NCBI GenBank assembly: GCA_045639705.1
Contig: JAZUDP010000156.1
Coordinates: 1-30,415 of the forward strand
Direction of reading: 5' to 3'
Length of the DNA stretch: 30,415 nucleotides
From: Acutalibacteraceae bacterium
GTDB taxonomy: Bacteria > Bacillota > Clostridia > Oscillospirales > Acutalibacteraceae
Each line of letters opens with the position of its first letter. Within the stretch, counting starts at the first letter, position 1. This document shows, piece after piece, positions 141 through 17,446 of the stretch. The notes below the pieces were generated by a model that saw only the letters and a program-made list of their open reading frames with translations, was not told where the DNA came from and ran no database searches. A program made the position numbers and the translations under genes.

Positions 141-312
141 CCGTTATATAGAATCTATAACATTTGCTTGTTCTGTTTTCCTCTCCCACCGACGCGGTAA
201 AAATTAACGCAGTTATCGAATTAAAAAATTGATATTAATCCATAAAAATCAAATTTTATTCAAATGCAATTTTCATACATGTTTATTTATCTGAAAAAAT
301 TATTCATTTTTT

Positions 313-342
313 TCAAACTATTTTTCATTCCGATGCGTCTTA
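313..342 (+). promoter_or_regulatory. ECF-type promoter motif, copy 1: TCAAAC-N17-CGTCTTA
   Basis: TCAAAC is at 313-318, a 17-nt spacer starts with TATTT and ends with TG, and CGTCTTA is at 336-342. A T-rich tract lies upstream. It is near-identical to the copies at 685-714 (+) and 13063-13092 (-). AAC (-35) and CGT (-10) are the hallmarks of ECF sigma promoters. Confidence 0.55.
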
Positions 343-684
343 TGTGTGTAAAGAGAGTAAATCTATGACTGCTCCTTTATAAAATAAAGCTGTGGGGTGT
401 TAATTATAAAAAACGAAGCAGATTTAATGGACAGGCTCATTCATACAGCATTGCTTGCAGCAGAAGAAAAACTTGCAAGTACCTAAATAACAAAAGAGCA
501 AACTGCTGAACATAATCAAGAAAGTTTATACAAAGAAATCGGGACAGCTTCGGAAACGGATAAGTACAAATCGATAAAAACGGGAAAAATTACAGAAAAG
601 CAAACAAATAATATCTGCGCTGTTTGCGGAAACAGTAAATTTATCCGTCTGTTCGTAAAATAATTGAAATTTTTTCAAAAAATT

Positions 685-714
685 TCAAACTATTTTACGT
701 TGAGATGCGTCTTA
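685..714 (+). promoter_or_regulatory. ECF-type promoter motif, copy 2: TCAAAC-N17-CGTCTTA, 185 nt upstream of the 899 ATG
   Basis: TCAAAC is at 685-690, a 17-nt spacer TATTTTACGTTGAGATG follows, and CGTCTTA is at 708-714. It shares TTTCAAACTATTTT and GATGCGTCTTA with copy 1. Confidence 0.6.
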
Positions 715-898
715 CTGGCAAAGGTGAAAAATACTTTCAATTTGAACATATGAGGAGTGAATTTAATGAAAACATAATTCGCAATATCCGGGTTTATCGT
801 TAGTTAAATAAAAACAGAGGATTTTTTATGAAAAAGGCATCAGCATTTATTATTAACACTTGATTTAAAAGAACAAAGTAAAAAACGGAGGAAAAATT

Positions 899-2632
899 AT
901 GAAAGCTATATTTAAAAAAGTTTTATCGTCAACTCTCGCTGCAGCAATGCTGTTCGGAACAGCTCAGCTCGGCGCAAACTCAGACTTCACCATCAAGGCA
1001 AGTGCCGAAGAAAACACTTCTTACACCTTTGATGAAGAAAGCGGAACTCTCACAATGTTAAATGATGTTTTGGATTGGGACAACGAAGAAGCTCTCGAAC
1101 TGATTGCAAAAGCCAAAACAGTTTACATCGGAAAGGATATTAAAAATACTGATGTTTTCTTTACCAACAATGTAACCGGATTCGAAATTGACCCTGAAAA
1201 CGAAAACTTCTGCATTTACGACAAGGCTCTGTACACAAGCGATAAATCAAGAATGGTTGCATATCCCTGCGGCAGCGACGATGTTGATATCGTTCTTCCG
1301 AAGGAATGCACGGAAATTTCAGAATACTGCTTCAAGGACTGGAAGCATTATTGTGAATTCGGAGAGAGTATTACAGGCCTCGCATTACCCGTAAGAAACG
1401 ATTATTCGCTGTATATAACGGATAAAAATCAGGCTGAAGCGTTGTCAGATTATTTAGTGGCTTCTATCATTTATCCGTTTTCAAATATTTATCTTGACAA
1501 AACGCAGACGGAAATTGACGAATGGCAATACGATGATTTTTCAGCTGTAGATTTTTACAGATCAGCTGCCGGTTATATGCTTATTACTTATTTAAGCCAC
1601 AGATATGACAGCGAAAAAATGGATATCATTGAAACAGAAAGCAGTACGCTGTTTGAATACGGTATGCCTTTCACAAAGGAAGAATGTGAAACCTACAAAG
1701 AATTACTGCAGAATATGGACTGCTGGGATTATACCGAGCCCACAGCCGATGAGTTTTACGAGAGATACAGCACCGATAATTTTGAAGAAGAGTTTAAGCT
1801 CTGGACAGATTGTCTTAAGCGTGCACATGACTATGCAACAGAAACTTTTGAAAACTATGATGTATTCAAACCGATTTCGGAATATAACGGCGGCATCTGC
1901 GGCGACAATGCAGAATGGAAATATGACAGCACAACAAATACACTTAAAATAAGCGGTTCAGGCTCTGTAAAGGATAATTATTCAGGCTGGGATCTGTTCA
2001 GAGATTCCATAACCTCTGTTGAATTCGGCAACGGCATAACCTCAATCGGTGCAAATGCTTTTGAAGGCTGCAGCAGCATTTCCGATGTATACATAGCTGC
2101 TGATAATTTATCACTCGGAGAAAATGCATTCGGCACAGCCAAGCCGAACTTTATTGCAAAAGACGGTACAACTGCCTGCCGTGCAATTGAAAATGCAGGA
2201 TACAATGTTATCAGATACAGCCTTGACCGTACATTTGCAGAGAAAAAGAAGAGCGAAGAAAAACCCGTTCTTGCATTCCTTGACGCTGTTGCTTCCGAGA
2301 ACGGATTGAATTGCAGATATTTCACAAAGCTCATTCTTGATAATCCCGAAGCAGCTTATGTGTATTTTGAAAGTGTTAACCTGAATGACTTAACCGGTGA
2401 CGGTATAGTTATTGATACTGAAAGCAAAACAGACTGCTGTGAGCAGATATACTTCCGTGTTGAAGCACAGGATACCGACGGAGACGGTCAGGCTGACACC
2501 GTTAAGCTTTCCGATGTGGAAGCAGAAAAAACTTTCGTCGAAAAGGTTAAAGGATTCTTTGAAAAAGTTGTTGAATTTTTCTCGAATGTCTTTAATTCAA
2601 TTGGCGGATTTTTCAAAAATCTCTTTAATTAA
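899..2632 (+). CDS. Secreted BspA-type leucine-rich-repeat (LRR_5-like) protein with an amphipathic C-terminal tail
   Basis: RBS GGAGGAAAAATT precedes the ATG. The N-terminal signal peptide is MKAIFKKVLSSTLAAAMLFGTAQLGA...KASA. The motif CGDNAEWKYDSTTNTLKISGSGS...ITSVEFGNGITSIGANAFEGCSSISDVYI is typical of BspA/LRR_5 surface proteins. The last ~32 aa (FVEKVKGFFEKVVEFFSNVFNSIGGFFKNLFN) are a strongly amphipathic Phe-rich helix. Confidence 0.8.
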   Translation: MKAIFKKVLSSTLAAAMLFGTAQLGANSDFTIKASAEENTSYTFDEESGTLTMLNDVLDWDNEEALELIAKAKTVYIGKDIKNTDVFFTNNVTGFEIDPENENFCIYDKALYTSDKSRMVAYPCGSDDVDIVLPKECTEISEYCFKDWKHYCEFGESITGLALPVRNDYSLYITDKNQAEALSDYLVASIIYPFSNIYLDKTQTEIDEWQYDDFSAVDFYRSAAGYMLITYLSHRYDSEKMDIIETESSTLFEYGMPFTKEECETYKELLQNMDCWDYTEPTADEFYERYSTDNFEEEFKLWTDCLKRAHDYATETFENYDVFKPISEYNGGICGDNAEWKYDSTTNTLKISGSGSVKDNYSGWDLFRDSITSVEFGNGITSIGANAFEGCSSISDVYIAADNLSLGENAFGTAKPNFIAKDGTTACRAIENAGYNVIRYSLDRTFAEKKKSEEKPVLAFLDAVASENGLNCRYFTKLILDNPEAAYVYFESVNLNDLTGDGIVIDTESKTDCCEQIYFRVEAQDTDGDGQADTVKLSDVEAEKTFVEKVKGFFEKVVEFFSNVFNSIGGFFKNLFN

Positions 2633-2640
2633 AACCAAGC

Positions 2641-2675
2641 AAAAAATCTCCCGATTTTTCGGGAGATTTCTTTTT
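2641..2675. terminator. Bidirectional rho-independent terminator between convergent genes
   Basis: AAAAAATCTCCCG-attttt-CGGGAGATTTCTTTTT has A-run and T-run flanks on both sides. It overlaps the stop codon of the minus-strand gene. Confidence 0.8.
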
Positions 2676-5600
2676 ATCCGAATTTCATTATTCTGAATAC
2701 CGACAGAATATAATTTAATAATTTTATAAGCGCTTCTGTCAGAATATCAATCAGAGCTTTTGGTGTTTCGGGAGACTCTGCGGCAAATTCAATACTCTGA
2801 TCAACAAGATTAAGATACTCATTATATACCGAACTCGTTGTCAAAGCTTCTTCATCGCCGCTGTTCTGTTCAATTTCAGAAAGAAGAACGCCTGCCTGCT
2901 GCAGAATAAACACATCCTCGTTGTTTATTTCTCCGTCACGGTTACAGTCCGCCGCCTTCCAGACAGCCTCGCTCACATCTTCGCGGGTCAGCATACCGCT
3001 TGCAATACACGATACTGTCATCGCGTCCGTTCCGTCATACCAGCCGTCACCGTTTACATCACCGAAAATAACTGCGGTGTAAATAACTGTATTATCATTG
3101 TTTTCCGATCTGTCAAGATTGTTTTTCACAGTGATAACCGAGCCGGTAACTGCCCTCTTTGTATTGCAGTAAGCACTGATACTGCCGCCGCTGTTATTTA
3201 CATAGCCGTCTATGCTGCTGCCGGGCTTAAAGCCGAAAATTAAACCGCAGCCGTCAGACCGTACAGAATTGCAGAACGGATTTTTGAAGTCTTCAAAATT
3301 TTCAAAATTATAAAATGAATGTTCCCCTATCGACGGATAAGCTTTACTGTCGCTGTCAAAATAAAACGTGTACCATTTGTCATTTCCCGTATTACATGGG
3401 CAGTTACAGAAAGCATAATCGCCGATTTCCTTTATTTTATAGTTATAATCTGCGTCTTCATCATATTCAAATTCAACAGTTTTTAAATTCACACAGTTTT
3501 TGAACGCAGACCGTCCAATTTCCGTTACCGTATTCGGAATGATTACAGCGGTTAATCCCGTACAGCCGTAAAAAGCATAATCGCCGATTTTTTCAAGTCT
3601 GTCTGCTTTGGAAAAATCTATTTTGTTAATGCCCGTACACTCTCTGAATGCGTCGCTTCCGATTTCTTCAACACCTTCGGGAATAATAAACGTACCTCTT
3701 ACATTCGCCGAAACGCTTTTCAGAACCGTCTTTTTAGAGTCGCCGAACAGAATGTCGGTACTGCTTCCGCCAAAATCAAATCCTGCGACACATGAGGCAA
3801 ACGGATTTCTGTTGCCGTATTTTACATTTCCGCCGATATTGATTTTCTGAAGCCTTCTGCATCTGTAAAATGCAAGGTCGGAAACATAAGCGTTATCTAC
3901 TATTGTATATTCCGTGCCGTCCTTCATTGCGGGATACTGAATAATTGTATTTCCGTCTGCCGATGCAAGAACGCCGTCAATATCGCAATATTCGGAATTG
4001 CCGTTTTCAACATTAAAGCTTTTCAGTCCCGTACAGCCGTAAAATGCGAGATGACCGATTTCGTTTACACCCACAGGTATTGTAATTTCACCAAGCGATA
4101 TGCAGTCCGCAAAAGCATTGTCGCCGATTTCGGTTATATTGCCGTTCAGCGCAACCGATTTCAGATTCATACAGCCGCTAAATGTATTTTTATCAATAAT
4201 CCTTACGCTGTCGGGAACAGTAATGCTTTCGAGACTTGTACAGCCCGAAAAGGCTCCCGCGGCTATCTGCATGGTTCCGTCTCTGATTGTAAATGCACTT
4301 ACATCGGGTGCGACGGAAATAAGCACGGAATCAATATATAATGTTGTTTTTACCTCAGCCTCAACCTCAGTCTCTTCATCCGTTTTTGAATCATCTGTAA
4401 AGAGATTTTCTCCCACATATTTAAGGCTTTTCGGAAGATTTATTGAATTCTTTACAGAAGCCGAGCAGCCGCTGAACGCATTGCTGCCGAGGAAGCTGAG
4501 TCTGCTGTTTTCTCCGCAGCTAAAGCCTGTCAGAGCCGTACATTTTTCAAAAGCTCTGTCTGCAATGCCCCTGACATCATCATCAAGACTGTATTTTCCT
4601 CGGAGCTTTGTTTTTGAAGAAACGATATAGCCGCCTATAATCAATACGTTAGAAACCCATTCGCCCGCATTTTTATAATTACCCGAATTGAAGAACGCCT
4701 TTGCACCGATGCTTTTCAGACTTACTGTTCCGGGAATCTCAACAAAAACATTTATGCAGTTTACAAAAGCATTTTCGCATATGTGAGTTATACTGTCCGG
4801 CACAACATATTCCCCTGCAGAATTTCTGTTGCAGAACAGTATTCCCGTACCGTTTTCATTCAGAGACATATCGTTATCCGAAACTGACGCGGTGAAAAGA
4901 ACATTATTTTCAATCGGTATTGTATATACAACACCGAAGTCGTCTGTATTATCGGGAGCAATTACATACTGTAGATTGTCACAGCCGGAAACAGCCGTGT
5001 CTGCAAAATAAACTGAGCTTGAAAAGTTTATTGTCGTTACATTCTCACAGTTAAGGAAGCAGTTTTCTCCGACTTCTTCAACCGTGTCGGGGATTATAAC
5101 CGTTCCCTCTGCATCCGGAGTACATCCCAGAAGCAATTCCTTGCTCGAATCATAATAATACAGACCGTCTTCAACATATGCATCAACAGCCTTAGCCCCC
5201 CACGGCGAGCCCTGCCGATGCATAACATTATTGTACCAGTTATCCGAATAGGTGATATTATTAACAAAGCGGAATGCGTCTTTGCCTATATCGGTAACGC
5301 TGTTCGGGATTGTGATACTCTGTAAAAGCTGGCATAAGTAAAACGCATTCTCGCCTATACTGACAACACCGTCCGGGATGGAAATCGCTGCTAATTTTTT
5401 GCATGCCCAGAAGGACTGCGTTCCTATACTTGTGACGCTGTCCGGGATTGTGACACTTTTCAAATGGCTACAGCAAAAAAACATTCTATCGGGAATATAT
5501 GTAATACCTTGCGGAATTACAAAATCCGTAAGATTTTCACACCTTGCAATTGCACTGTCACCGATATATGCAACGCTGTCAGGGAAAGTAATACTTTCAA

Positions 5601-7725
5601 TGTTTGTACAGTATGAAAATGCACCGTTACCTATATATGTCACAGTCTCGGGTATAGTGATATCCGTCAGCCCCGAGCACGCACCAAATGCACATTCGCC
5701 TATATATGTAACGCTGTCGGGAATTGTAATATCGGTTAAGGATTTACATCCTTCAAACACACGGTCGCTGATGCTTACAATACCGTCGGGTATGTTTACG
5801 TTTTTTAAATTTGAGCAGTAGTAAAACGCCTGATTTTCAATATTCTCAATACTGTCGGGAATGTTTATATCTGTCAATGCACTGCAATCACAAAATGCAC
5901 GGCGGCCGATATTAACAACACCCTCGGAAATAACCACCTCCGTCAGACTTGAACAGCGTGAAAAAGCATCCTTACTGATATCCCTTACACCTTTGGGAAC
6001 AGTTACTGTTCCTGTTAAGCTCACACAGCTTTCAAAAGCACTCTGACCGATATATGTAACACTGTCAGGAATAGAGATTTTTATCAGACTTTTGCAGACA
6101 GAAAATGCGTTATCGCCTATATATTTCAGATTTTTCGGCATGACGATATCCGTCATAGCTGAGCAAAAATAAAAGGCATTCTCTTCAATATCTGTCACGC
6201 TATCCGGTAAAACTATACTTAGCAGGTCCTCACAGTAATAAAATGCATTTTCCCCTATGCTTTTAACTCCGTACGGAATTACTGTATTTTTAATTCCCGC
6301 AACCAGTTTATCCGAAGATGTTTCTATAATTCCGCTGCAGTTTTCACGGCTGTCATATTTCGCGTTGTTTTCATCGACCGTAATACTTGTTAAGAACGAG
6401 CAATTAGTGAATGCGCTGCCGTCTATATTCGCAACATTTTTCGGAATGTTTATGCTTGTCAGACCTGTACAATAAGCAAACGCCCGTTCGCCAATACTTA
6501 CCACACTGTCAGGAATAATAATGCTTGTCAGTTTTTCGCAGTGTTCAAGTGCCCGGAGCCCGATGTTTGTCACACCGTCGGGAATAACAATATCCGTTAA
6601 GTTCTCGCAAGAGTAAAATGTGAAAGGCTCTATGCTTGTAAGTCCGGCAGGCATTGTGATATCTGTTAAGCTTATGCAGTAATAAAATGCCTCCCAACCG
6701 ACAGAAGTCACGCTGTCCGGAATATCTGCGCTTATCAGAGCTGTACAGCAATAAAAGGCTTTGTCTCCGATAGAGGTAACGCCGTCGGGAATGTTTGCAC
6801 TTATCAATCCGGTACAATTACAGAAGGCTTGGGCTTCGATAGAGGTAACACCGTCGGGAATAACAATATGCTTTAATCCCGAACAGCCGTAAAATGCACG
6901 GTAGCTTATTCTTGTTACACCGTCGGGAATACTTATATCGGTCAGACCTGTACAGTTTTCAAATGCATTTGTACCGATATATGTTACATTGCGGGAAATC
7001 GTTACACCTGTTAAACGATTACAGCCAGAAAATGCAGAGTTTCCTATTTTTGTAACGCTGTCAGGGATTACGATGTCTGTAAGGCCTGTGCATTTAAAAA
7101 ACGCATTGTCCTCTATACTTTTAACGCCATTTGAAATTGTTATTTCTTTCAGACCGGTGCATTGGGAAAATGCGTAGCTTCCGATGCTTGTAACCAGGCC
7201 CGGAATCGTTATGTCTGTTAAACCGCTGCAGTTGGAAAATGCAGAGCCTCCGATGCTTGTAACCCCTTCGGGAATCGTTACACCTGTTAAACGTTTGCAA
7301 CCGGAAAAGGCAACGTTTTCTATTTTTGTAACACTGTCAGGAATCGTTATGTCTGTCAGGTTCGTGCAATTATAAAAAATATATCTTCCTATACTTGTAA
7401 CACCGTAATTAATTATAACTTTTTCTATTGACACATTATTATAAAACGGCGTTGAAGAAGAGCTGAAGCTTGTCATACTGCCTGTACCGCTGATTGTGAG
7501 AGTACCTGTGGCTTCATCCAACTCCCAGTAAACGTTATCTCCACACTGTCCGCTTGCGGCAAGTGCAGATGCCGAAAAACTTAACCGGACACTGTCAAAC
7601 CAATCTGCTATTTTTTTTAATGCACCCGAAAGATTTATATCTGTCAGTCCCTCCAGCGGTGCTGCACCGAAAAGCATGACAACGCACAGCAATATTGAAA
7701 TACTGTTTTTTATAATCTTTTTCAT
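2674..7725 (-). CDS. Giant (1683 aa) secreted BspA-type LRR protein with a near-C-terminal type-I dockerin and an extra amphipathic tail
   Basis: RBS GGAGGGAAAAAGCA precedes the ATG. The signal peptide is MKKIIKNSISILLCVVMLFGAAP. There are dozens of ~23-aa IPDSVTSIG..AF..C..L..I units (LRR_5-like). Dockerin duplicated Ca-loops are GDVNGDGWYDGTDAMTV and DCNRDGEINNEDVFILQQ. Confidence 0.9.
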   Translation of the reverse strand: MKKIIKNSISILLCVVMLFGAAPLEGLTDINLSGALKKIADWFDSVRLSFSASALAASGQCGDNVYWELDEATGTLTISGTGSMTSFSSSSTPFYNNVSIEKVIINYGVTSIGRYIFYNCTNLTDITIPDSVTKIENVAFSGCKRLTGVTIPEGVTSIGGSAFSNCSGLTDITIPGLVTSIGSYAFSQCTGLKEITISNGVKSIEDNAFFKCTGLTDIVIPDSVTKIGNSAFSGCNRLTGVTISRNVTYIGTNAFENCTGLTDISIPDGVTRISYRAFYGCSGLKHIVIPDGVTSIEAQAFCNCTGLISANIPDGVTSIGDKAFYCCTALISADIPDSVTSVGWEAFYYCISLTDITMPAGLTSIEPFTFYSCENLTDIVIPDGVTNIGLRALEHCEKLTSIIIPDSVVSIGERAFAYCTGLTSINIPKNVANIDGSAFTNCSFLTSITVDENNAKYDSRENCSGIIETSSDKLVAGIKNTVIPYGVKSIGENAFYYCEDLLSIVLPDSVTDIEENAFYFCSAMTDIVMPKNLKYIGDNAFSVCKSLIKISIPDSVTYIGQSAFESCVSLTGTVTVPKGVRDISKDAFSRCSSLTEVVISEGVVNIGRRAFCDCSALTDINIPDSIENIENQAFYYCSNLKNVNIPDGIVSISDRVFEGCKSLTDITIPDSVTYIGECAFGACSGLTDITIPETVTYIGNGAFSYCTNIESITFPDSVAYIGDSAIARCENLTDFVIPQGITYIPDRMFFCCSHLKSVTIPDSVTSIGTQSFWACKKLAAISIPDGVVSIGENAFYLCQLLQSITIPNSVTDIGKDAFRFVNNITYSDNWYNNVMHRQGSPWGAKAVDAYVEDGLYYYDSSKELLLGCTPDAEGTVIIPDTVEEVGENCFLNCENVTTINFSSSVYFADTAVSGCDNLQYVIAPDNTDDFGVVYTIPIENNVLFTASVSDNDMSLNENGTGILFCNRNSAGEYVVPDSITHICENAFVNCINVFVEIPGTVSLKSIGAKAFFNSGNYKNAGEWVSNVLIIGGYIVSSKTKLRGKYSLDDDVRGIADRAFEKCTALTGFSCGENSRLSFLGSNAFSGCSASVKNSINLPKSLKYVGENLFTDDSKTDEETEVEAEVKTTLYIDSVLISVAPDVSAFTIRDGTMQIAAGAFSGCTSLESITVPDSVRIIDKNTFSGCMNLKSVALNGNITEIGDNAFADCISLGEITIPVGVNEIGHLAFYGCTGLKSFNVENGNSEYCDIDGVLASADGNTIIQYPAMKDGTEYTIVDNAYVSDLAFYRCRRLQKINIGGNVKYGNRNPFASCVAGFDFGGSSTDILFGDSKKTVLKSVSANVRGTFIIPEGVEEIGSDAFRECTGINKIDFSKADRLEKIGDYAFYGCTGLTAVIIPNTVTEIGRSAFKNCVNLKTVEFEYDEDADYNYKIKEIGDYAFCNCPCNTGNDKWYTFYFDSDSKAYPSIGEHSFYNFENFEDFKNPFCNSVRSDGCGLIFGFKPGSSIDGYVNNSGGSISAYCNTKRAVTGSVITVKNNLDRSENNDNTVIYTAVIFGDVNGDGWYDGTDAMTVSCIASGMLTREDVSEAVWKAADCNRDGEINNEDVFILQQAGVLLSEIEQNSGDEEALTTSSVYNEYLNLVDQSIEFAAESPETPKALIDILTEALIKLLNYILSVFRIMKFG
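2881..3063 (-). other. Dockerin (type I-like) module within the giant LRR protein
   Basis: Two EF-hand-like 12-residue loops, each followed by a helix (DVNGDGWYDGTD..., DCNRDGEINNED...), match the canonical dockerin duplicated-segment pattern. The module sits about 68 aa before the C-terminus. Confidence 0.75.
5265..7419 (-). repeat. Densest in-frame array of ~69-bp LRR_5 coding repeats inside the giant gene
   Basis: The I/V-P-D/E-x-V-T-x-I-G-x-x-A-F-x-x-C-x-x-L unit recurs periodically. The periodicity also creates the spurious antisense ORFs with repeated VTLSGIV. Boundaries are approximate. Confidence 0.7.
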
Positions 7726-7746: not shown

Positions 7747-9549
7747 TTAACGTCTTTTGAAACGGAACAGCTCAAAGAACTGTGCAAGAATCAATCTTAA
7801 TGTCTTGAATGTTTCTGCAATAGTCTGAGTTACATCGGGAACCGAAATTTTAATCCGAACGCTTATACTGTCTCCGTCCGCAGTTATTTCACACTCTTTC
7901 TGCACGCCGTTGACCTGTACCGTCAATTCTTCTGAATAATATCCCGATATTTTTATTTCCGCAAAGTATTCGTTTAATCCGCCGATTTCGTTGACGCTTT
8001 CTTTCAGGCTTTCGTCCTTAAAAAGGGAAATCTCAGCCGGAACAGTAAGCACCGAGCCGTCGTCAAATGTCAGTATTGTACTCTTAACCGCCCCGTTTTC
8101 ATCAGTCAGAATGTTCAGCCCGTTAACGCAGGCAGAGCCGATACCCTGTCCGGCAATTTTCAGCCGTCCTCTGCCGCCGTCCCAGCTTCCGTCAAATTCA
8201 ATCATTGTTTTAAATGTGCCGTCACTGTTTTTAAGACGCTTATAATCTGCAGCTACGGCTTCTTCTATCGTACTGTCTCTTTCAAAAGGCTCATAAAAAT
8301 CTTCATTCTCATACAAATAGCTGTCAAAGCCGTCTATTCTGCTGATTACCGTATCCTTTGTAAATCTGTAACCGTCAGCAGGAATTATATAAAAGCAGTT
8401 GTTAATACTGTTTTTCCTTACGATATGCTCTGTTGACGAAGTACCGAGACAGTATTCACTGTTGTTTTCAACTGAAATCTGAATATTCTGCACATCTTCG
8501 TTCCAGTTTTCATCCTTGACTGCCGATTTAACCGTCATTCTGTTAAGGGGCAAAAGTGAAAAATAGCAATAAACCGTATCGGGCGAGACTGAAATATTTT
8601 CACCTGTTACTTTTAATCTGCCGCTTAACACGGGGCGGTCAAAAAGTATAAGATTACAGCCGTTTTTCAGTGCGGCCTTACCGCTGAACGCAGTCGTTTT
8701 TCCGACTTTAACGGTTATTTCTTCAACCGAAGAAGAAAACGCCCTCACGTTTATACCGTAAATAAAGCCTACATGCCTTAAAAGCTGATTTCCCTTAAGC
8801 GTCAGATTAATGCCGTTAACACGGCTGACCTCAAGCGCCGCCGCATAAATAAGCGGCGCAGAATATGAAAGATAAAAATATCCTCCGTCTCCGAAATCTG
8901 TTCCGCTGCTGTTTTTGCATATCCACGCGCCGTTTTTCTTGCCGAGGCTTTTTCCGTTTTCACCCTTGTTGAAATTATTACGGTTATAATTATCGTCCCA
9001 GCCGACAATAGAAATCGCGTGATACTTATCACTGTTTCCTCCGCTGTAGGCAAAGCTGTGCGCTGCTTCGCTGTAATATCTTGAATCAGTCAGTCCGTCC
9101 TCATCAGGAACTGCAATTGCTGCAACAATCGCACCGTTTTCGCTGATTTTTTCTTTCAGATATCTGTCGCCTCTGCCCGAAAGAAATTCAACAGAGGTAA
9201 TCGCATATCCGTTTCCGATATTACAGCCGATGCTTTTGTAAAGCACATCTCCGAAGTTATGTATATCGGGATTTCCCGCCTCTTCTGCAAGACTTTCTTC
9301 GTTAAAATCAGCCTCACTGTCAGATGCATCGAAGTATTTTTTTGCATAGCTGCCCGCCGTTGAAAGTATTGAATAATAAAGACAGCTGTCCTCAATTTCC
9401 GCCTTCTCCACCGGCGGAGCATAATCCGCGTTGCTGAACTCTGAGGAATAAGAGCAATCCTGGGCAGGAACAGCCGCCGAACTGATAACGCATCCAAACA
9501 GCAAAGAAATAACACAGATTACCGAAATAACCGCTTTAAGCTTTTTCAT
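7747..9549 (-). CDS. Secreted papain-like (peptidase C1-like) protein with a ~350-aa C-terminal beta-rich extension and an amphipathic basic tail
   Basis: The signal peptide is MKKLKAVISVICVISLLFGCVISSAA. C1 motifs are present: YHAISIVGWDD (His), NGAWICKNSSGTDFGDGGYFYLSY (Asn block), and candidate Cys in EDSCLYYS. Start: the ATG at 9549 has better RBS spacing (GGAGAATGAAT) than the ATG at 9555. The 9555 ATG overlaps the upstream TGA as ATGA. Confidence 0.7.
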   Translation of the reverse strand: MKKLKAVISVICVISLLFGCVISSAAVPAQDCSYSSEFSNADYAPPVEKAEIEDSCLYYSILSTAGSYAKKYFDASDSEADFNEESLAEEAGNPDIHNFGDVLYKSIGCNIGNGYAITSVEFLSGRGDRYLKEKISENGAIVAAIAVPDEDGLTDSRYYSEAAHSFAYSGGNSDKYHAISIVGWDDNYNRNNFNKGENGKSLGKKNGAWICKNSSGTDFGDGGYFYLSYSAPLIYAAALEVSRVNGINLTLKGNQLLRHVGFIYGINVRAFSSSVEEITVKVGKTTAFSGKAALKNGCNLILFDRPVLSGRLKVTGENISVSPDTVYCYFSLLPLNRMTVKSAVKDENWNEDVQNIQISVENNSEYCLGTSSTEHIVRKNSINNCFYIIPADGYRFTKDTVISRIDGFDSYLYENEDFYEPFERDSTIEEAVAADYKRLKNSDGTFKTMIEFDGSWDGGRGRLKIAGQGIGSACVNGLNILTDENGAVKSTILTFDDGSVLTVPAEISLFKDESLKESVNEIGGLNEYFAEIKISGYYSEELTVQVNGVQKECEITADGDSISVRIKISVPDVTQTIAETFKTLRLILAQFFELFRFKRR

Positions 9550-9551
9550 AT

Positions 9552-11378
9552 TCATTCTCCAATTCTTTCAATAAAATCTGAAAGTGCCGTAATCATTTTT
9601 TCAATATACTCAAATATCAAGTCGTTGTGGAAATCGTATTCAAGTATTTCTTTTATGACAGGTATCTCTTTTCCTTTTTCTTCAAGTCCGTCAATTTTAT
9701 CAGTATCCGTCAGCCGGGCCTGAATATTGTCGATTACATCGTTCTGCCATGCAACCCATCTGTCAAATGCAGAAATATTTTCATCTGCCCTGCCGTCCTC
9801 GGAGGAATACAGATGAACAACAAAAACCAGCTTTTTGCTCTCGGGATTTTCAGCAACACCGATACCTATTTTTTCAAAATCTCCGCTGATTTTTTCATCC
9901 TTAAGTATTGAGGCTGCAGCAGTTTCGTACGACGAATAATCAACCCTTCTTATTTCATCTCTTGAGCCGGTCGAATAGCCGTTGTGTTCAAACAGAGCCG
10001 TATAGTCCGTTCCGTCAGGTCTTATTGCCGTATCTCTTTCCGTCCATGCGATTTCTTCAGCTCTTACGTTTGCCTGCTCAGTCAGGATATCGTCAAGCAC
10101 AAGAGCTTTCTTGTTTTCGGAAGCTCTTTTTTCATTTATTTCTGCAAGTGAATCGTTGATATATGCAATATATTTACTTTGGTTTTCTTTTGCCGCCGGC
10201 AGCAGTTCCTCATAGCTTGCTTTAAAATTTTTTCTGTTCAGAACAGGTCTGCCCGAATATACATCGCCGTTTCTGTTTGCATAACGCTGAATAGTGTATT
10301 CCACTCCGTATTTAAGCTTTCCTTTTTCAAAATAAGTATCGGCAAGCTTATTCTCTGCAACCGTGTATGCCTCTGTCGGCTTTTCCGTAATCGCTTCGGT
10401 AACAGACTCAATATATGTCGGTTCGGTATATTCCTCTGCAACGGCAGTTGTCGGTTCTTCTGTCTGACGGTTCTTTAATGCCCGGGTTCCTGCGATACCT
10501 CCGCCTGCAATAACGCCTGCGATAACAACGCATGCGATGATTTTTGCGGCAATGCCCGTGCCTGCTGCGGCCGTACCTGCGGCAGCAAGGCCCGAAGCTG
10601 CATAAGGAGCAACGGAAGTTGAAGCGGCGGAGGTTTTGAGTACCCAGCCGATAAGCGTTGCAGGTGTAACACCAAGAAGCTTACCGTGCTTTGCCTCGTA
10701 AGCGGAAACCGCTTTGGTAATATCCTTTTTAGCCTGAACAAGTCGGCTCTTGATTGTGTTTTCACTTACACCGACAGACTCTGAAATCTCCCTTGTGGTC
10801 ATGTTGTTGTAATAGTAGAGGATGACAGCGGCTTTCTTTTCCTCGCTGAGATTCTCAATCATGTCCATAACGGTTCTGCACAGTTCTTCCTTTTCAAGGT
10901 CGGATTCGGGCAGAAAGCTTTCATAATCCTCAGAGGTCGCCTCGTCAATATATGCCTGCTTTTTTGATTCTCCGATGCTCATGCCGTCATCGCTGTTATG
11001 GTCGGAATAATCGTCACTGTAATCTCCGAATTCCTTTGCCCACTCGTCGTCAAGATTTGAATAATCTTCTTCCTGAGTTTTTTCATAGAATCGGGGATTA
11101 TTCTTTCTTATTACGGATTTAGCCTGATTGGCAACAATCATGTTGAACCAGCTCATAAAGGTTGTCGGATCTTTAAGCGTGCCGATTTTATCCATAACCT
11201 TTATGTAACAATCCTGCATGACATCGTCAGCATCGGATTCATTATTGTTAAGTATTTTTAAAGCGGTGAATTTTGCCGTGCGGTAAGTCATGTTGTAAAT
11301 CTGTTCAAACGCGCTGCCGTCACCGTTCTGATACTTTACAACCAGTTTGCTAAGCTCGTTATAATCAATTTCAGCCAT
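9552..11378 (-). CDS. ECF-like sigma-70 family factor fused to a transmembrane segment and a C-terminal CAP/SCP (YkwD-like) domain
   Basis: Region 2 reads DDVMQDCYIKVMDKIGTLKDPTTFMSWFNMIVANQAKSVIRK. Region 4 HTH reads LSEEKKAAVILYYYNNMTTREISESVGVSENTIKSRLVQAKKDI. An ~80-aa acidic linker lies between them. An Ala/Gly-rich hydrophobic segment is IAAKIIACVVIAGVIAGGGIAG. The C-terminal part reads INEKRASENKKALVLDDILTEQANVRAEEIAW...RPDG...FEKIGIGVAE...VFVVHLY, which resembles CAP domains. Confidence 0.75.
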   Translation of the reverse strand: MAEIDYNELSKLVVKYQNGDGSAFEQIYNMTYRTAKFTALKILNNNESDADDVMQDCYIKVMDKIGTLKDPTTFMSWFNMIVANQAKSVIRKNNPRFYEKTQEEDYSNLDDEWAKEFGDYSDDYSDHNSDDGMSIGESKKQAYIDEATSEDYESFLPESDLEKEELCRTVMDMIENLSEEKKAAVILYYYNNMTTREISESVGVSENTIKSRLVQAKKDITKAVSAYEAKHGKLLGVTPATLIGWVLKTSAASTSVAPYAASGLAAAGTAAAGTGIAAKIIACVVIAGVIAGGGIAGTRALKNRQTEEPTTAVAEEYTEPTYIESVTEAITEKPTEAYTVAENKLADTYFEKGKLKYGVEYTIQRYANRNGDVYSGRPVLNRKNFKASYEELLPAAKENQSKYIAYINDSLAEINEKRASENKKALVLDDILTEQANVRAEEIAWTERDTAIRPDGTDYTALFEHNGYSTGSRDEIRRVDYSSYETAAASILKDEKISGDFEKIGIGVAENPESKKLVFVVHLYSSEDGRADENISAFDRWVAWQNDVIDNIQARLTDTDKIDGLEEKGKEIPVIKEILEYDFHNDLIFEYIEKMITALSDFIERIGE

Positions 11379-11390
11379 CCGCTCACATCC

Positions 11391-11519
11391 TTATTTCAGG
11401 CAGTTTTTCGACTTCAAATATTCCGTAAGAATATCAATAAGCATTTTCAGTTTCTCTTCCGGAGAAATCTCCATTTTTGAAGCATATTCATTCAATACCT
11501 GTCGTATTAAACTATTCAT
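11391..11519 (-). CDS. 42-aa small ORF (MNSLIRQVLNEYASKMEISPEEKLKMLIDILTEYLKSKNCLK), first gene of the sigma operon; absent from the ORF track
   Basis: Hand translation of the minus strand. RBS GAGAGGTG lies 5 nt before the ATG. The stop is 12 nt upstream of the sigma ATG. It is predicted all-helical. It shares the heptapeptide LIDILTE with the C-terminal tail of the giant LRR protein. Confidence 0.5.
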   Translation of the reverse strand: MNSLIRQVLNEYASKMEISPEEKLKMLIDILTEYLKSKNCLK

Positions 11520-11556: not shown

Positions 11557-11585
11557 ATAATAGCACCCTTCAACAGAAATGTAAA
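11557..11585 (-). promoter_or_regulatory. SigA-type promoter for the sORF/sigma operon (TTTACA-N17-TATTAT)
   Basis: Read on the minus strand, -35 is at 11585-11580 and -10 is at 11562-11557, about 38 nt upstream of the sORF ATG. Confidence 0.45.
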
Positions 11586-11872
11586 ATATTATATCGGCGA
11601 TTTAAAAAATTAACACAGGATATTTATAAATGATTTTTCACTGGCGGTTTTATATCCGTCGTCGGTCTGCTTGAATGCCCCGAAGTCTGTCGGATTCTGC
11701 ATTAAAAGTTCACCTCTTTGCTCCGAGAATGCTCATGTTGAATATTAACCGGCAGAACAATGTGAATTGCATTTTTGCTTGATACGCTGTTCCAAACCGA
11801 TGTTGCAGAAATGCCGCAGTTACAGAAAATCATTTCGCAAGCATTCTTTGATTTAATTTTTTGTTAACCTTA

Positions 11873-13006
11873 TTATGCCGTTTCAAACCATTCAATCAGG
11901 CCGTTATCAAAGCAAAGATTAACATTTTCTCCAAGGCTGTTTACCGTTGTGTCCGGCAAAGGAGAGTTATCCGCAATTTTACATAAGTTGTAACCGATTG
12001 TCTTTGCAAGGAAATGAGATATTCCGGGATGAGAACTGTCAGGAAGAACTACGCGATTACTGAAGACTGACCAACGGCAGTGTTCCTTCACATTTGTTTT
12101 TTCACACAGACGGTTCCAGGTTACATTCTGATTTGCGATGTAATTTATAAGCGGGTCTGTCTTTGCGGATATTATCCAGATAGGAAGATTTGATACTTTT
12201 TCAAGTTCTTTATTGGTAGGTATCTTTGTAGCACAAAGTGCAACACCTGAGGTGAAACGGTTCGGATGATTTATCATAAGCTTCCACACAACCCCGCCGC
12301 CGGCAGAGCCGCCCATAATCAGTATTTTATTCTCGTCGATATTTTCTTTGTTGTCGTTTATATACTCCTGAATAACACTGTAAACAGATTCTGACTGAGC
12401 GGACGAAAGCTTAAATTCAGAAAGTTTCGGCATAAGCAGATGAGCGCCGCCGGCTTCAAACTTTTCCTGAATTTCCGTACAGCACCAGTATGCGAGTCCG
12501 CTCTTTACAAAGGTTTTGTCGGTCCAGCCATGAAATCTGCCGTGTACATATATAACAAGCGGATACTTTGCAGTATCGTTTTCGTCAGCAACAGGTGAAT
12601 AATATGCATATTTCATTCCGCAGCCGGACTTTTTAATTGTAAACTGTTCAAGAAGTTTGTTGTAGCCGTTATTTATGCTGAATGTTTCTTTTTTTATTAT
12701 GACGGGCTGCTCCGGTTCATCAGGCTGCACCGGCTCATCAGGCTGCTCCGGTTCATCAGGCTGCACCGGCTCATCAGGCTGCTCCGGCTCGTCAGGCTGC
12801 TCCGGCTCGTCAGGCTGCTCCGGCTCGTCAGGCTGTACCGGTTCGTCAGGCTGTTTTTCAGGGTCTTCTGTCGTATTCTCTGTTTCTTCTTCAGTGAGAG
12901 TTGTTTCTGTCGGGTTTTCTGCATCCTCTGCATATGCCGGAAATGTTGTGTTCGCCATTGTAAAAACACAAATGATTGCAAGCAGAATTGATAAGATTTT
13001 TTTCAT
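11873..13006 (-). CDS. Secreted alpha/beta-hydrolase esterase (CE1/PHB-depolymerase-like) with an N-terminal acidic Pro-rich repeat linker
   Basis: The start was trimmed to the ATG at 13006 (RBS AGGAG, signal peptide MKKILSILLAIICVFTMANTTFPAYA). The ORF-track N-terminal extension runs through the promoter and terminators. Motifs seen: nucleophile elbow IMGGSAGGG, YPLVIYVHGRFHGW, SAKTDPL, and a late His in SSHPGISHF. Confidence 0.8.
   Translation of the reverse strand: MKKILSILLAIICVFTMANTTFPAYAEDAENPTETTLTEEETENTTEDPEKQPDEPVQPDEPEQPDEPEQPDEPEQPDEPVQPDEPEQPDEPVQPDEPEQPVIIKKETFSINNGYNKLLEQFTIKKSGCGMKYAYYSPVADENDTAKYPLVIYVHGRFHGWTDKTFVKSGLAYWCCTEIQEKFEAGGAHLLMPKLSEFKLSSAQSESVYSVIQEYINDNKENIDENKILIMGGSAGGGVVWKLMINHPNRFTSGVALCATKIPTNKELEKVSNLPIWIISAKTDPLINYIANQNVTWNRLCEKTNVKEHCRWSVFSNRVVLPDSSHPGISHFLAKTIGYNLCKIADNSPLPDTTVNSLGENVNLCFDNGLIEWFETA
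12704..12853 (-). repeat. 18-bp in-frame tandem repeat encoding (QPDEP[E/V]) x8
   Basis: Directly visible CCGG[C/T]TC[A/G]TCAGGCTG[C/T][A/T]C periodicity. It translates to QPDEPVQPDEPEQPDEPE... within the esterase. Confidence 0.9.
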
Positions 13007-13062
13007 AATAATTACTCCTGTTTTTGTTTGTTTTTTAAAGCGTCTCTTCGTGCTTTCACCTA

Positions 13063-13092
13063 TAAGATGCAGAAGGAACTGAAATAGTTTGA
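13063..13092 (-). promoter_or_regulatory. ECF-type promoter motif, copy 3: TCAAAC-N17-CATCTTA, 57 nt upstream of the esterase ATG
   Basis: The minus strand reads ATATCAAACTATTTCAGTTCCTTCTGCATCTTATAGG. TCAAACTATTT is identical to copies 1 and 2, the spacing is the same 17 nt, and TGC[A]TCTTA differs by one base. A T/A-rich tract lies upstream. Confidence 0.55.
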
Positions 13093-13110
13093 TATTTTTA
13101 AAAAAATTAT

Positions 13111-13743: not shown

Positions 13744-14082
13744 ATGTGTACAAAGAATAAGCTTGATGAAATAACAGGCAAGGTTGCTGCTGAGGCAAAA
13801 AGAATTTTGAACGAAAAATTGATTAGCGTTGTCCTTTTCGGTTCTTATGCAAGAGGGGATTATGACGATGAGTCTGATATCGACATAATGCTTCTTGTGA
13901 ATTGTGATAAATCTGAATATGCGGAAATCAAGAAGAAGCTATACAAGGAAGCAAGTATGATTTCACTTGAAAATGATATTGAGGTTTCACTCACACTGGT
14001 AGAAATATCAAAGTTTGAAATGTATAAGGACTGTTACCCGTTTTATGAGAATATAGAGTCGGAGGGGATAAAAATTGCCTGA
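13744..14082 (+). CDS. Minimal nucleotidyltransferase (MNT) domain protein, MntA-like antitoxin candidate
   Basis: The motif LFGSYARGDYDDESDIDIMLL is the GSxxRG...DxD polymerase-beta-type nucleotidyltransferase signature. The protein is 112 aa and overlaps the downstream HEPN gene by 8 bp. Confidence 0.85.
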   Translation: MCTKNKLDEITGKVAAEAKRILNEKLISVVLFGSYARGDYDDESDIDIMLLVNCDKSEYAEIKKKLYKEASMISLENDIEVSLTLVEISKFEMYKDCYPFYENIESEGIKIA

Positions 14083-14467
14083 CAGAATTAAAGAAACATC
14101 TAAACTCCAGCTTGAACGTTCGGAGCTTCTTTTGAAAAGTGTTCCTGTTCTTATAGAGGCTGACGATGCCTTTTCTGCGGTTAACCGTTCCTACTACGCG
14201 GTATTTCATGCAATTAAAGCTATTGAGATATTTGATAATTTCGATTCTAAAAAGCATTCAGGACTTATTTCAAATTTCAGACAAAAGTATATCAAGACAG
14301 GGATTTTTGATATTGAGTATTCTGAAATACTGAAGAGCCTTGCACAGTATCGTCAGGACAGCGATTATGATATTTTCGCAGATATATCGCTTGATGAAGC
14401 TAAGGAACAATATGAAAACGCCAAAAAGTTCGTTGATGCAGTAAAAGCTTTCTTAAGCTCAAAGTAA
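14075..14467 (+). CDS. HEPN domain protein (PF05168-like), HepT-like partner of the MNT
   Basis: A TTG start lies 7 nt after GGAGGGG. It is a four-helix-type sequence with NRSYYAVFHAIKA and YRQDSDYD at the position of the HEPN R-x4-6-H motif. This is the classic MNT-HEPN two-gene arrangement. Confidence 0.75.
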   Translation: MPDRIKETSKLQLERSELLLKSVPVLIEADDAFSAVNRSYYAVFHAIKAIEIFDNFDSKKHSGLISNFRQKYIKTGIFDIEYSEILKSLAQYRQDSDYDIFADISLDEAKEQYENAKKFVDAVKAFLSSK

Positions 14468-17392: not shown

Positions 17393-17417
17393 AATATTCC
17401 CTCCTGCGTTTTTTCTG

Positions 17418-17446
17418 ATTATATCACTGCGCCGCAATAATAGCAA
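17418..17446 (-). promoter_or_regulatory. SigA-type promoter for the xylanase (TTGCTA-N17-TATAAT)
   Basis: The hexamers are read on the minus strand. It overlaps the spurious ORF-track N-terminal extension. Confidence 0.5.

Follow-up and report, generated by a model that had tools for sequence, protein, structure and literature searches.

We analyzed a 30,415-nucleotide (nt) stretch of DNA from an Acutalibacteraceae bacterium (NCBI GenBank assembly GCA_045639705.1, contig JAZUDP010000156.1, positions 1 to 30,415; hereafter the window) and focused on a minus-strand gene whose 608-amino-acid (aa) product joins, in this order, sigma region 2, an acidic linker, sigma region 4, one transmembrane helix, a Thr/Glu/Pro-rich stalk and a CAP-fold domain. 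The gene lies in a minus-strand island of ~13 kb that runs from a promoter of the extracytoplasmic function (ECF) type (copy 3 in Table 1) through a hydrolase gene, a decayed gene, a small open reading frame (sORF), the sigma gene and a protease gene to the gene of a leucine-rich repeat (LRR) protein with a dockerin. This unit converges on the plus-strand promoter copies 1 and 2 and the gene of a 577-aa secreted protein. An earlier inspection of the letters alone (the sequence-only reading) had singled out the gene as a one-component transmembrane sigma factor with a CAP/SCP-like C-terminal domain.

Table 1 Features of the sigma gene and its surroundings, in window coordinates (PWM, position weight matrix; ORF, open reading frame)
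Feature	Coordinates	Strand	Details
ECF-type promoter copy 1	309..346	+	PWM score 41.4
Truncated 19-codon sORF homologue	427..486	+	MDRLIHTALLAAEEKLAST*; after promoter copy 1, no sigma gene following
ECF-type promoter copy 2	681..718	+	PWM score 41.1
Secreted 577-aa protein	899..2632	+	Weak LRR_5 match, F-rich C-terminal tail; behind promoter copies 1 and 2
Bidirectional intrinsic terminator	2641..2672	.	Strong; closes both convergent units
BspA-type LRR_5 protein with dockerin	2674..7725	-	1683 aa; last gene of the operon
Secreted Cwp84-like papain-family cysteine protease	7747..9555	-	602 aa; start overlaps sigma stop (ATGA)
Membrane-anchored ECF-type sigma with CAP-like ectodomain	9552..11378	-	ATG start, 608 aa
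Helical C-terminal extension	9555..9788	-	aa 531-608; added family-specific tail, ~85 aa
Beta-strand prelude (LKYGV...) and degenerate CAP/SCP domain	9789..10343	-	aa 346-530
Disordered Thr/Glu/Pro-rich stalk	10344..10484	-	aa 299-345
Gly/Ala-rich single transmembrane helix	10485..10556	-	aa ~275-298
Juxta-sigma4 motif	10632..10688	-	aa 231-249, GKLLGVxPxxLxxWxLK; candidate intramolecular regulatory element
Sigma region 4 helix-turn-helix	10722..10871	-	aa 170-219; Pfam Sigma70_r4_2
Acidic linker between sigma2 and sigma4	10884..11096	-	aa 95-165; predicted disordered
Sigma region 2	11097..11297	-	aa 28-94; Pfam Sigma70_r2
Conserved sORF	11391..11519	-	42 aa, with two helices predicted and no signal peptide; 12 nt separate its end from the sigma start
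SigmaA-like promoter candidate	11557..11585	-	TTTACA-17-TATTAT, upstream TG; just ahead of sORF; consensus match only
Remnant of secreted His/Cys-motif protein	11610..11833	-	Two ORF fragments; frameshifted C-terminal remnant
Secreted alpha/beta-hydrolase with PDEPEQ repeats	11873..13006	-	Pfam Abhydrolase_1/Peptidase_S9; first gene behind promoter copy 3
ECF-type promoter copy 3	13059..13096	-	ATCAAACTATTT...TGCATCTTATAGG; PWM score 35.7

Domain architecture and family of the sigma protein

The N-terminal module of the protein is an ECF (group 4) member of the sigma-70 family. Both of its Pfam models score above their gathering cut-offs (Sigma70_r2, PF04542, 31.2 bits vs. 24; Sigma70_r4_2, PF08281, 50.7 bits vs. 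25.7), as does the sigma70-ECF superfamily model TIGR02937 of NCBIfam (93.6 bits vs. 42.9); no NCBIfam equivalog or subfamily model attains its own cut-off for the protein, and Pfam returns no Sigma70_r3 or r1 match at E <= 1 across the 608 aa. A sequence profile of the family reaches SigW at 2e-22, and Foldseek searches against PDB relate the N-terminus to Mycobacterium tuberculosis SigE, Escherichia coli sigmaE/RseA, AlgU/MucA and SigW/RsiW, with region 2 matching sigmaE structures (2map, 4lup) at template modelling (TM) scores of 0.80-0.85 and region 4 matching 3hug at 0.84. In the AlphaFold2 model of the whole protein, built from a 30-sequence family alignment, the two sigma regions are of moderate confidence. 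Across the 30 aligned homologues the invariant residues of sigma2 (D49, A50, D52, Q55, F74, W77, F78, N79, A83, N84) and of sigma4 (E206, T208, K210, S211, R212, A216, K217, K218) are those typical of ECF core binding and DNA recognition. These results bear out the ECF-like assignment of the sequence-only reading, and the peptides quoted there are all present, namely FMSWFNMIVANQAKSVIRK at aa 74-92, TTREISESVGVSENTIKSRLVQAKK at aa 194-218, IIACVVIAGVIAGGGIAG at aa 280-297, an acidic stretch at aa 103-132 and RALKNR at aa 299-304.

Sigma2 and sigma4 are separated by a linker of 72 aa with a net charge of about -18 to -19 and a predicted local distance difference test (pLDDT) score below 50 over aa 94-158. 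It had been described as ~80 aa long and acidic; it is indeed long and acidic, although somewhat shorter than claimed, and ~35-40 aa of it are an insertion restricted to the closest clade, the family norm being 33-43 aa, likewise acidic. Directly after sigma4 comes the motif GKLLGVAPxxxVxWALK, with P239 and W245 invariant in the family alignment, and the whole spacing from sigma4 to the transmembrane helix, this motif included, is only ~45 aa, of which ~25 aa form a disordered Ala/Gly/Ser/Thr tether. The helix itself lies in the one strongly hydrophobic segment of the protein (aa ~272-298, Kyte-Doolittle 2.2), following the Ala/Gly/Ser/Thr-rich region, and nearly all 85 relatives likewise have one strong hydrophobic segment. 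A282, G292 and G293 are invariant within the helix, which also carries small-xxx-small motifs, and a conserved basic GTRAxKNR motif comes next. The AlphaFold2 model leaves aa 251-327 (tether, transmembrane helix and stalk) disordered, the stalk with pLDDT below 50 to aa 327.

The C-terminal domain is, in the AlphaFold2 model, an alpha-beta-alpha CAP sandwich. Pfam assigns CAP (PF00188) to aa 411-521 with 33.3 bits against a gathering cut-off of 21.1, and most full-length homologues also carry a Pfam CAP assignment. In the model, pLDDT exceeds 90 over aa ~390-530, with short beta-strands before the domain (aa 346-381) and helices after it (aa 537-607), and this confidently modelled part superposes on CAP/SCP structures, including Borrelia BB0689 (4d53; TM score 0.81, root-mean-square deviation 2.0 A over 128 columns), Staphylococcus aureus SAV1118 (4h0a) and a Bacillus anthracis SCP protein (4ifa). 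Sequence searches miss the solved CAP structures, with phmmer returning only chance annexin matches for the CAP region alone against PDB sequences and a 16-sequence profile of the domain returning only designed repeat proteins, so that the domain is tied to those structures by Pfam and fold.

Alignment against the closest canonical CAP lipoproteins, whose signatures are WSGKHSHxRP, GENxGW, AWKxSExHYENI and WVQHFY, reveals marked degeneration of the sigma-fused domain: WSGKHSHxRP becomes WTERDTAIRP (HSH to DTA), with loss of the His; GENxGW becomes SRDEIR (GEN to DEI), with the Glu kept; a 5-residue deletion takes out the Glu and His of SExHYENI; and of WVQHFY only the last-strand His remains (VHLY). 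Mapped onto what we take to be the His-Glu-Glu-His tetrad (CAP3 His, Glu of CAP4 GEN, Glu/His of the CAP1 region), 3/4 tetrad residues are presumably lost. The earlier comparison with YkwD-type CAP domains thus holds for the fold and fails for the signature residues, which are not YkwD-like. The helical tail behind the domain, in which P573 is nearly invariant and D582 and D586 are invariant, is absent in stand-alone CAP relatives.

An exhaustive search using the ectodomain alone returned 109 representatives, ~10 of them sigma fusions and the rest mostly proteins of 170-500 aa. The relatives that were read are signal-peptide/lipobox lipoproteins with a Thr/Pro linker, the closest being Clostridia lipoproteins of ~300 aa, and the prelude LKYGV...Y[ST]A.Y.ELLPAA (LKYGV...YSASYxELLPAA in the closest relatives) is common to these CAP lipoproteins and the sigma-fused domain. 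We considered the ~300-aa relatives as stand-alone anti-sigma factors and rejected the idea, since they are lipoproteins with no cytoplasmic domain. Because the HSH His is lost, the ExHY motif deleted and the GEN Glu alone kept, we read the sigma-fused domain, from its residues, as a putative module for binding or sensing that descends from a secreted CAP lipoprotein, and not as a catalytic or metal-binding CAP domain. A literature search found no published link between a sigma factor and a CAP domain.

The homologue search covered 5.8 billion clustered proteins and returned the 85 relatives mentioned above. About 34 protein clusters (38-84% identity) keep the full sigma-transmembrane-CAP architecture, and ~50 share the sigma and transmembrane module only, with LRR_5, SH3_3, Big_2, MORN, RCC1-like, YARHG or nothing recognisable at their C-termini. 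The architecture-sharing clusters come from independent contigs, of different samples and assemblers, and the retention of the whole architecture in ~34 of them argues against a chance fusion of ORFs. Genome matches are rumen metagenome-assembled Clostridia, Ruminococcaceae and Clostridiaceae; public annotation gives merely 'sigma-70 family RNA polymerase sigma factor', and one homologue is named 'Clostridia bacterium' at NCBI. The architecture, earlier called unusual, is therefore not unique, and it also fits the description of the catalogued group ECF262 (see below); the CAP extension itself appears to be undescribed.

Two of the homologous loci (numbered L001 onwards) carry the sigma and transmembrane module fused directly to LRR_5 repeats (L002 3685-6102 and L013 7001-9106), Rosetta-stone-type fusions that would tie the sigma family functionally to the BspA-like LRR proteins otherwise encoded alongside. 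In another (L010 1058-4785), tandem family sigmas stand behind one promoter together with two sORFs, the first sigma with a weak SH3_3-like C-terminus and the second of CAP type, an arrangement that points to several sensors feeding one promoter type or to cross-regulation.

Gene cassette and promoter motif

The sigma gene is part of a recurrent cassette. The order sORF, sigma-transmembrane-CAP gene, C1-like protease gene and LRR_5 giant is found again in L001 (84% identity) and in L005, L009, L010, L015 and L016 (38-44%). Across CAP-type sigma loci a C1-like gene lies immediately downstream in 7/7 and an LRR_5 gene is adjacent or fused in 6/7, L015 ending after the protease, whereas in seven distinct loci of non-CAP paralogues with 38-46% sigma identity (L002, L003, L004, L007, L008, L011 (= L012) and L013) the counts are 0/7 for the C1-like gene and 7/7 for LRR_5. 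No C1-like gene and no LRR_5 gene is found in the neighbourhood of the more distant P0057 (L014, 31% identity).

The C1-like family comprises 16 full-length members, eight of them on contigs equal in size to those of sigma-CAP homologues, and a Cys-His-Asn triad (Cys58, His179, Asn215) is invariant in all 16. The protease model (pLDDT 80, predicted TM score 0.80) places beta-sandwich domains C-terminally, and Foldseek matches it to the protease and lectin-like domains of Cwp84 (4d59, 4ci7; E 2.7e-11), with cathepsin L and Der p 1 next at TM scores of 0.65-0.69. A BLASTP alignment with papain misaligned the catalytic His and was not used, family alignment and Foldseek taking its place. The catalytic Cys58 stands only ~30 residues past the signal peptide, a spacing as in mature papain, and there is thus no N-terminal inhibitory propeptide.

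In L001, L005, L007, L009, L010 (two copies) and L011 a homologue of the sORF immediately precedes the sigma gene, and in L013 one lies downstream of the sigma-LRR fusion; in L015 and L016 unaligned ORFs of 43, 46 and 53 aa occupy the position. The family (42-59 aa, consensus LDxLIRxxLxxAAExxxMSxEQKVxLLLxxLTxYL) has no Pfam match, and its members are candidate cytoplasmic partners or regulators of the sigma factor. The truncated homologue behind promoter copy 1 seems to be left over from a second sigma cassette that has decayed.

Family operons are marked by a conserved ECF-type promoter, TTCAAACTATTT-N10-11-TG(C/T)GTCTTA, of which the window holds three copies; the extended consensus is aaTTTCAAACTATTT-N8-9-nTG(c/t)GTCTTATagG. 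The string TCAAAC-N17-CGTCTTA, which the sequence-only reading had picked out, occurs 2 times in the window against an expected 0, and the relaxed form TCAAAC-N16-18-GTCTTA has 15 matches (13 non-redundant) in the 223 kb of window and loci against 0.125 in shuffles. The PWM behind the scores in Table 1 was derived from the motif sites and spans a training range of 34.7-45.2, with a maximum of 18.4 over 100 shuffles. Copy 3 was found by this PWM scan (13096-13059), and an initial view of the sigma operon as having a sigmaA-like promoter only was withdrawn. Two terminator-like hairpins (13191-13158 and 13145-13122) precede copy 3, the hydrolase start is ~50 nt further on, and no terminator separates the copy from the sigma gene, so that it is the probable start of a long operon containing that gene; the sigmaA-like candidate is a possible basal promoter.

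Upstream of family operons the relaxed motif occurs in 9 loci, which ties it to this sigma factor by association. It stands directly upstream of sORF/sigma operons in L002, L005, L010, L011 and L013, and also precedes genes for LRR proteins and for other secreted or membrane proteins. In L016, fetched after the motif had been defined, the sORF-sigma operon and the gene that follows the LRR gene are each immediately preceded by a site (scores 38.1 and 42.1), and L015 has a weaker site (24.8). One match in L005 (7654-7691) was discarded since it lies within the 3' end of the sORF, the true L005 site being at 6646-6683. The motif has the AAC (-35) and CGT-like (-10) character of ECF promoters, and its invariance parallels that of the sigma2 and sigma4 recognition residues across paralogues. 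This association is most naturally taken to mean that the sigma family reads the motif and autoregulates, and from the scans of window and loci the promoters are very probably the family's own.

Several neighbouring genes may belong to the same regulon. The 577-aa secreted protein is a probable member. The hydrolase probably starts at the ATG at 13006 (MKKILSILL..., with signal peptide and a Shine-Dalgarno sequence plus ATG); near-perfect tandem PDEPEQ/PDEPVQ repeats at 12675-12990 form its linker, and the same repeat DNA yields a spurious Gly/Ser-rich ORF on the opposite strand. The gene for the His/Cys-motif protein, decayed in the window, is intact in L001 (2-496), L005 (6763-7494), L011 (11614-12426) and L013 (10105-10791); its product carries a GHxW...NC(G/T)xFAxxVW motif, falls in no Pfam family, and could be a small Cys/His hydrolase that forms part of the regulon. 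Multi-pass membrane proteins of 146-180 aa that match no known family stand directly behind promoter-motif copies in L010 (9308-9802), L011 (11043-11585) and L013 (9635-10075), and may be further members.

Many secreted proteins of these cassettes end in F-rich amphipathic C-terminal tails (...GFFEKVVEFFSNVFNSIGGFFKNLFN; ...FWQKIINFFVKIADFFKNLFN; ...AKIIAFFRGLFG), as in the window at 2560-2632 (the 577-aa protein) and 7747-7820 (the protease), in L001 at 8918-10736 and in the upstream LRR protein of L009, and two CAP lipoproteins, P0097 and P0100, contain the tail motif internally. Rumen Clostridia may use this motif as a surface-anchoring or sorting signal that has so far escaped recognition. 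Elsewhere in the window, adjacent genes for an NTP_transf_2 nucleotidyltransferase and a HEPN-domain protein (13744-14467, plus strand) have the layout of an MNT/HEPN toxin-antitoxin pair. That the organism degrades plant cell walls and is of the cellulosome type is suggested by genes for a GH10 xylanase (16304-17446, minus strand), a GDSL/SGNH esterase (21049-22110, plus strand) and a GH106-like rhamnosidase (23856-26906, plus strand), and by the dockerin of the LRR giant.

Proposed release of the sigma module and alternative explanations

The reading that we prefer, and hold at a little below an even chance, is a one-component membrane-anchored ECF-type sigma factor that is released by proteolysis and has its output at GTCTTA-type promoters. 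In such a system the sigma2-linker-sigma4 module would lie in the cytoplasm, the Gly/Ala-rich helix would span the membrane, and the stalk would display the CAP-like domain and its helical tail on the surface. At rest, the sigma module would be kept at the membrane, maybe aided by the juxta-sigma4 motif or by the small upstream protein. An extracellular event sensed via the CAP-like domain would lead to cleavage of the stalk or ectodomain, for which the likeliest trigger would be the dedicated, prodomain-less Cwp84-like protease, translationally coupled to the sigma factor; a site-2 protease would next cut the Gly-rich helix and free the sigma module. The freed module would then direct RNA polymerase to the conserved promoters of its own operon and of neighbouring genes for BspA-type LRR and other secreted proteins. 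Proteolytic release has a precedent in IutY (Prc/RseP) and is predicted for ECF48/52/53 (PMC8999054). In the present case three features, namely the strict gene linkage, the translational coupling and the lack of a propeptide, suggest a physical interaction between the CAP-like domain and the protease. Site-2 proteases need helix-destabilising residues, and the invariant Gly-Gly of the transmembrane helix would suit such cleavage.

A bolder form of this proposal, which we regard as speculative and rather doubtful, makes the CAP pseudo-domain and the protease a dedicated receptor/protease pair gating the tethered sigma factor. The pseudo-domain would stand in for a propeptide, holding or inhibiting the protease until a surface cue set the enzyme free; the protease, acting as a private site-1 enzyme, would then cleave the stalk. 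The small upstream proteins of 42-59 aa would represent minimal cytoplasmic anti-sigma factors or co-factors of a new class, and the LRR_5, SH3 and Big_2 paralogues would be modular one-chain sensors serving one promoter type and the BspA-like repertoire of rumen Clostridia. If the protease-CAP coupling is true, it would constitute a new trigger for regulated intramembrane proteolysis and the first signalling role of a bacterial CAP domain.

Several points weigh against the proteolytic-release reading. Pfam and NCBIfam give no match to an anti-sigma domain, whether FecR-type or zinc-finger (ZAS), between sigma4 and the transmembrane helix, and the 30-kb window holds no site-2 protease gene. 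The Ala-rich new C-terminus left by cleavage could act as a degron, so that the sigma factor would be destroyed rather than activated. The oxyanion-hole Gln of the protease, six residues before the catalytic Cys, is Ala in the window and L001 but Gln (NQG...C) in L009, L010 and L005, and protease activity may thus be altered in the window clade. Cross-talk among the paralogues is possible, since they share both motif and recognition residues. The flanks of the transmembrane helix are balanced in the window protein (+1 on the N side, +3/-2 on the C side), and with GTRAxKNR conserved as well, the positive-inside rule alone gives no support for an N-in/C-out orientation. Finally, the protease and the LRR protein could be merely co-expressed cargo.

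This last point can be extended to an alternative that we consider unlikely, though far from negligible: the architecture and topology would be the same, the protease and LRR protein would be only co-expressed surface cargo, and the CAP-like domain would bind another ligand (a lipid, sterol, peptide or cell-wall fragment), with cleavage by an unlinked site-1 protease or autoproteolysis. Cwp84 is a surface-protein maturation protease, so the partner protease could simply process the LRR giant; CAP domains are reported to bind lipids and sterols; and the non-CAP paralogues operate with no C1 protease at all. The contrast of 7/7 and 0/7 in protease linkage, together with translational coupling, is hard to explain on these terms, since LRR proteins accompany all paralogues, and the canonical CAP cavity residues are lost in the sigma-fused domain.

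A further alternative, to which we give somewhat less credence still, is that the sigma factor is never released and recruits RNA polymerase while tethered, in the manner of ToxR/CadC, with the ectodomain modulating it by conformation or oligomerisation and with transcription of surface-protein genes coupled to the membrane. The disordered tether between sigma4 and the helix and the long flexible linker between sigma2 and sigma4 would accommodate this, small-xxx-small motifs could mediate dimerisation, the target genes all encode secreted proteins, and the protein has no anti-sigma domain. The invariant Gly-Gly, however, suits intramembrane cleavage, the fused sigma/anti-sigma protein IutY is activated by proteolysis, and we found no paper on a sigma factor functioning while membrane-tethered.

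The readings considered so far place the ectodomain outside the cell, and it is very improbable, in our view, that it lies in the cytoplasm, either through a two-helix hairpin or for want of real membrane insertion, with the CAP-like domain serving as an intracellular regulatory extension as the SnoaL-like domain of ECF41 does. Two features would favour this: the basic residues after the helix, and a second, moderately hydrophobic stretch after sigma4 (Kyte-Doolittle 1.6-1.7 in some homologues). The latter, however, contains Lys or Arg and Pro; its insertion energy comes to ~+6 kcal/mol (median of the family 6.3) vs. +0.6 for the transmembrane helix (median 1.95), both crude estimates on the Hessa scale, and in one subclade it has an Arg and is followed by ~40 charged, polar residues. 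We therefore rejected the two-helix hairpin and find a single transmembrane helix, as the sequence-only reading had proposed; nothing that this reading had named as refuting it was observed. The concern raised there over the RALKNR residues was justified in that the basic motif is conserved; we infer its resolution from relatives. In more distant relatives the N-flanks are net-positive and the C-flanks clearly net-negative, the paralogues carry LRR_5, Big_2 and SH3_3 (all typical extracellular domains) where CAP sits, the CAP relatives are lipoproteins, and a Thr/Pro/Glu stalk is typical of extracellular linkers. Together with the weak second stretch, these observations favour an N-in/C-out topology, in which one transmembrane helix would leave the ectodomain outside the cell.

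An origin of the fusion in an error of assembly or gene calling, or its being a pseudogene in decay, as its unusual architecture and the decayed cassette remnants nearby in the window might suggest, is already refuted by the intact reading frame and the conservation across ~34 independent homologous clusters, and has a practically negligible probability.

Comparison with known systems

The general design is known and probably already catalogued bioinformatically, whereas the degenerate CAP ectodomain, the sORF, the ectodomain-specific protease partner, the LRR-protein regulon and the conserved promoter appear to be undescribed. ECF sigma factors with fused transmembrane sensors have been catalogued in many groups, few of which have been studied (e.g., IutY and SCO4117), and for ECF262, the relevant, experimentally unstudied group in Firmicutes, ten proteins are known with no context, promoter or mechanism described. 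The locus therefore offers a concrete, testable system, with a promoter motif, a regulon of BspA-type LRR and secreted proteins, a candidate protease and small regulator, and ectodomain-swapped paralogues. It may explain how very large BspA-like and cellulosome-associated surface proteins are regulated in uncultured rumen Clostridia, and a compact sensor and sigma factor in one chain, served by an orthogonal promoter, would make a useful synthetic-biology part.

ECF262 is restricted to Clostridiales and has C-terminal extensions with 0-1 transmembrane helices and 'various domains', with no anti-sigma gene nearby (Casas-Pastor et al. 2021, Supplementary Text S2). Other members lie at +1/-1, regulation by the extension is proposed, and promoter motifs are 'not conserved' among its ten proteins from representative genomes (Casas-Pastor et al. 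2021). The family described here resembles it in coming from (rumen) Clostridia, in its variable C-terminal extensions with 0-1 transmembrane helices, in having no anti-sigma Pfam family among its neighbours, where the sORF of no known family could be an unrecognised regulator, and in the tandem sigma genes of L010, the window having only the relic of a second cassette. The ECF262s5 member ADU21381.1 of Ruminococcus albus 7 is 26% identical (E 3e-25) in an alignment of aa 7-239 that takes in the beginning of the juxta-sigma4 motif; such a level of identity is typical between different ECF groups. The ECF262 description differs in containing no CAP, LRR_5, sORF, protease or LRR-gene context, whereas here motif and cassette are strongly conserved; none of the family's signature peptides, nor its promoter motif, is among the listed entries of the ECF classification supplement. 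By its description and this one 26%-identical member, ECF262 is suggestively the closest catalogued group.

IutY of Pseudomonas putida (an ECF243 hybrid) likewise combines, in one polypeptide, an N-terminal ECF sigma, one transmembrane helix and an extracytoplasmic C-terminal part, and is activated by regulated intramembrane proteolysis via Prc and RseP (PMC8999054; PMC5411451). It differs in its FecR-type anti-sigma domain and in working, in a Gram-negative cell, with an outer-membrane receptor that depends on TonB, whereas the present protein, from a Gram-positive-type Clostridium, has a CAP-like ectodomain and no detectable anti-sigma domain. The actinobacterial groups ECF48, ECF52 and ECF53 (e.g., SCO4117), for which proteolytic activation is proposed (PMC8999054), also join an ECF sigma to a transmembrane extension with a Pro-rich extracytoplasmic stalk and a binding domain. 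They belong to another phylum, carry a zinc-finger (ZAS-like) anti-sigma element and carbohydrate-binding domains, and have no sORF/protease/LRR cassette. With neither a FecR nor a ZAS anti-sigma domain, the protein described here is not a strict member of the IutY or ECF52 type.

The SigI/RsgI systems of cellulolytic Clostridia are multiple paralogous systems in which differing extracellular sensing domains on single-pass proteins control surface and secreted genes. The likeness lies in paralogous sigma systems with different extracellular sensors in cellulosome-type Clostridia; the difference is that SigI, which is of another type than ECF, and RsgI are two proteins, whereas here sensor and sigma form one chain. 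Like Cwp84 of Clostridioides difficile, the partner protease is a surface-secreted cysteine protease in which a lectin-like beta-sandwich comes after the papain fold, but it has no propeptide, carries extra beta-domains and a C-terminal amphipathic helix rather than cell-wall-binding repeats, and in the window clade has Ala in place of the oxyanion-hole Gln. The ectodomain, finally, shares the alpha-beta-alpha sandwich of bacterial CAP/SCP proteins (YkwD-type; BB0689, 4d53; SAV1118, 4h0a), matching at the TM score of 0.81 given above, but has lost the CAP3 His and the Glu and His of SExHYENI and gained the ~85-aa helical tail.

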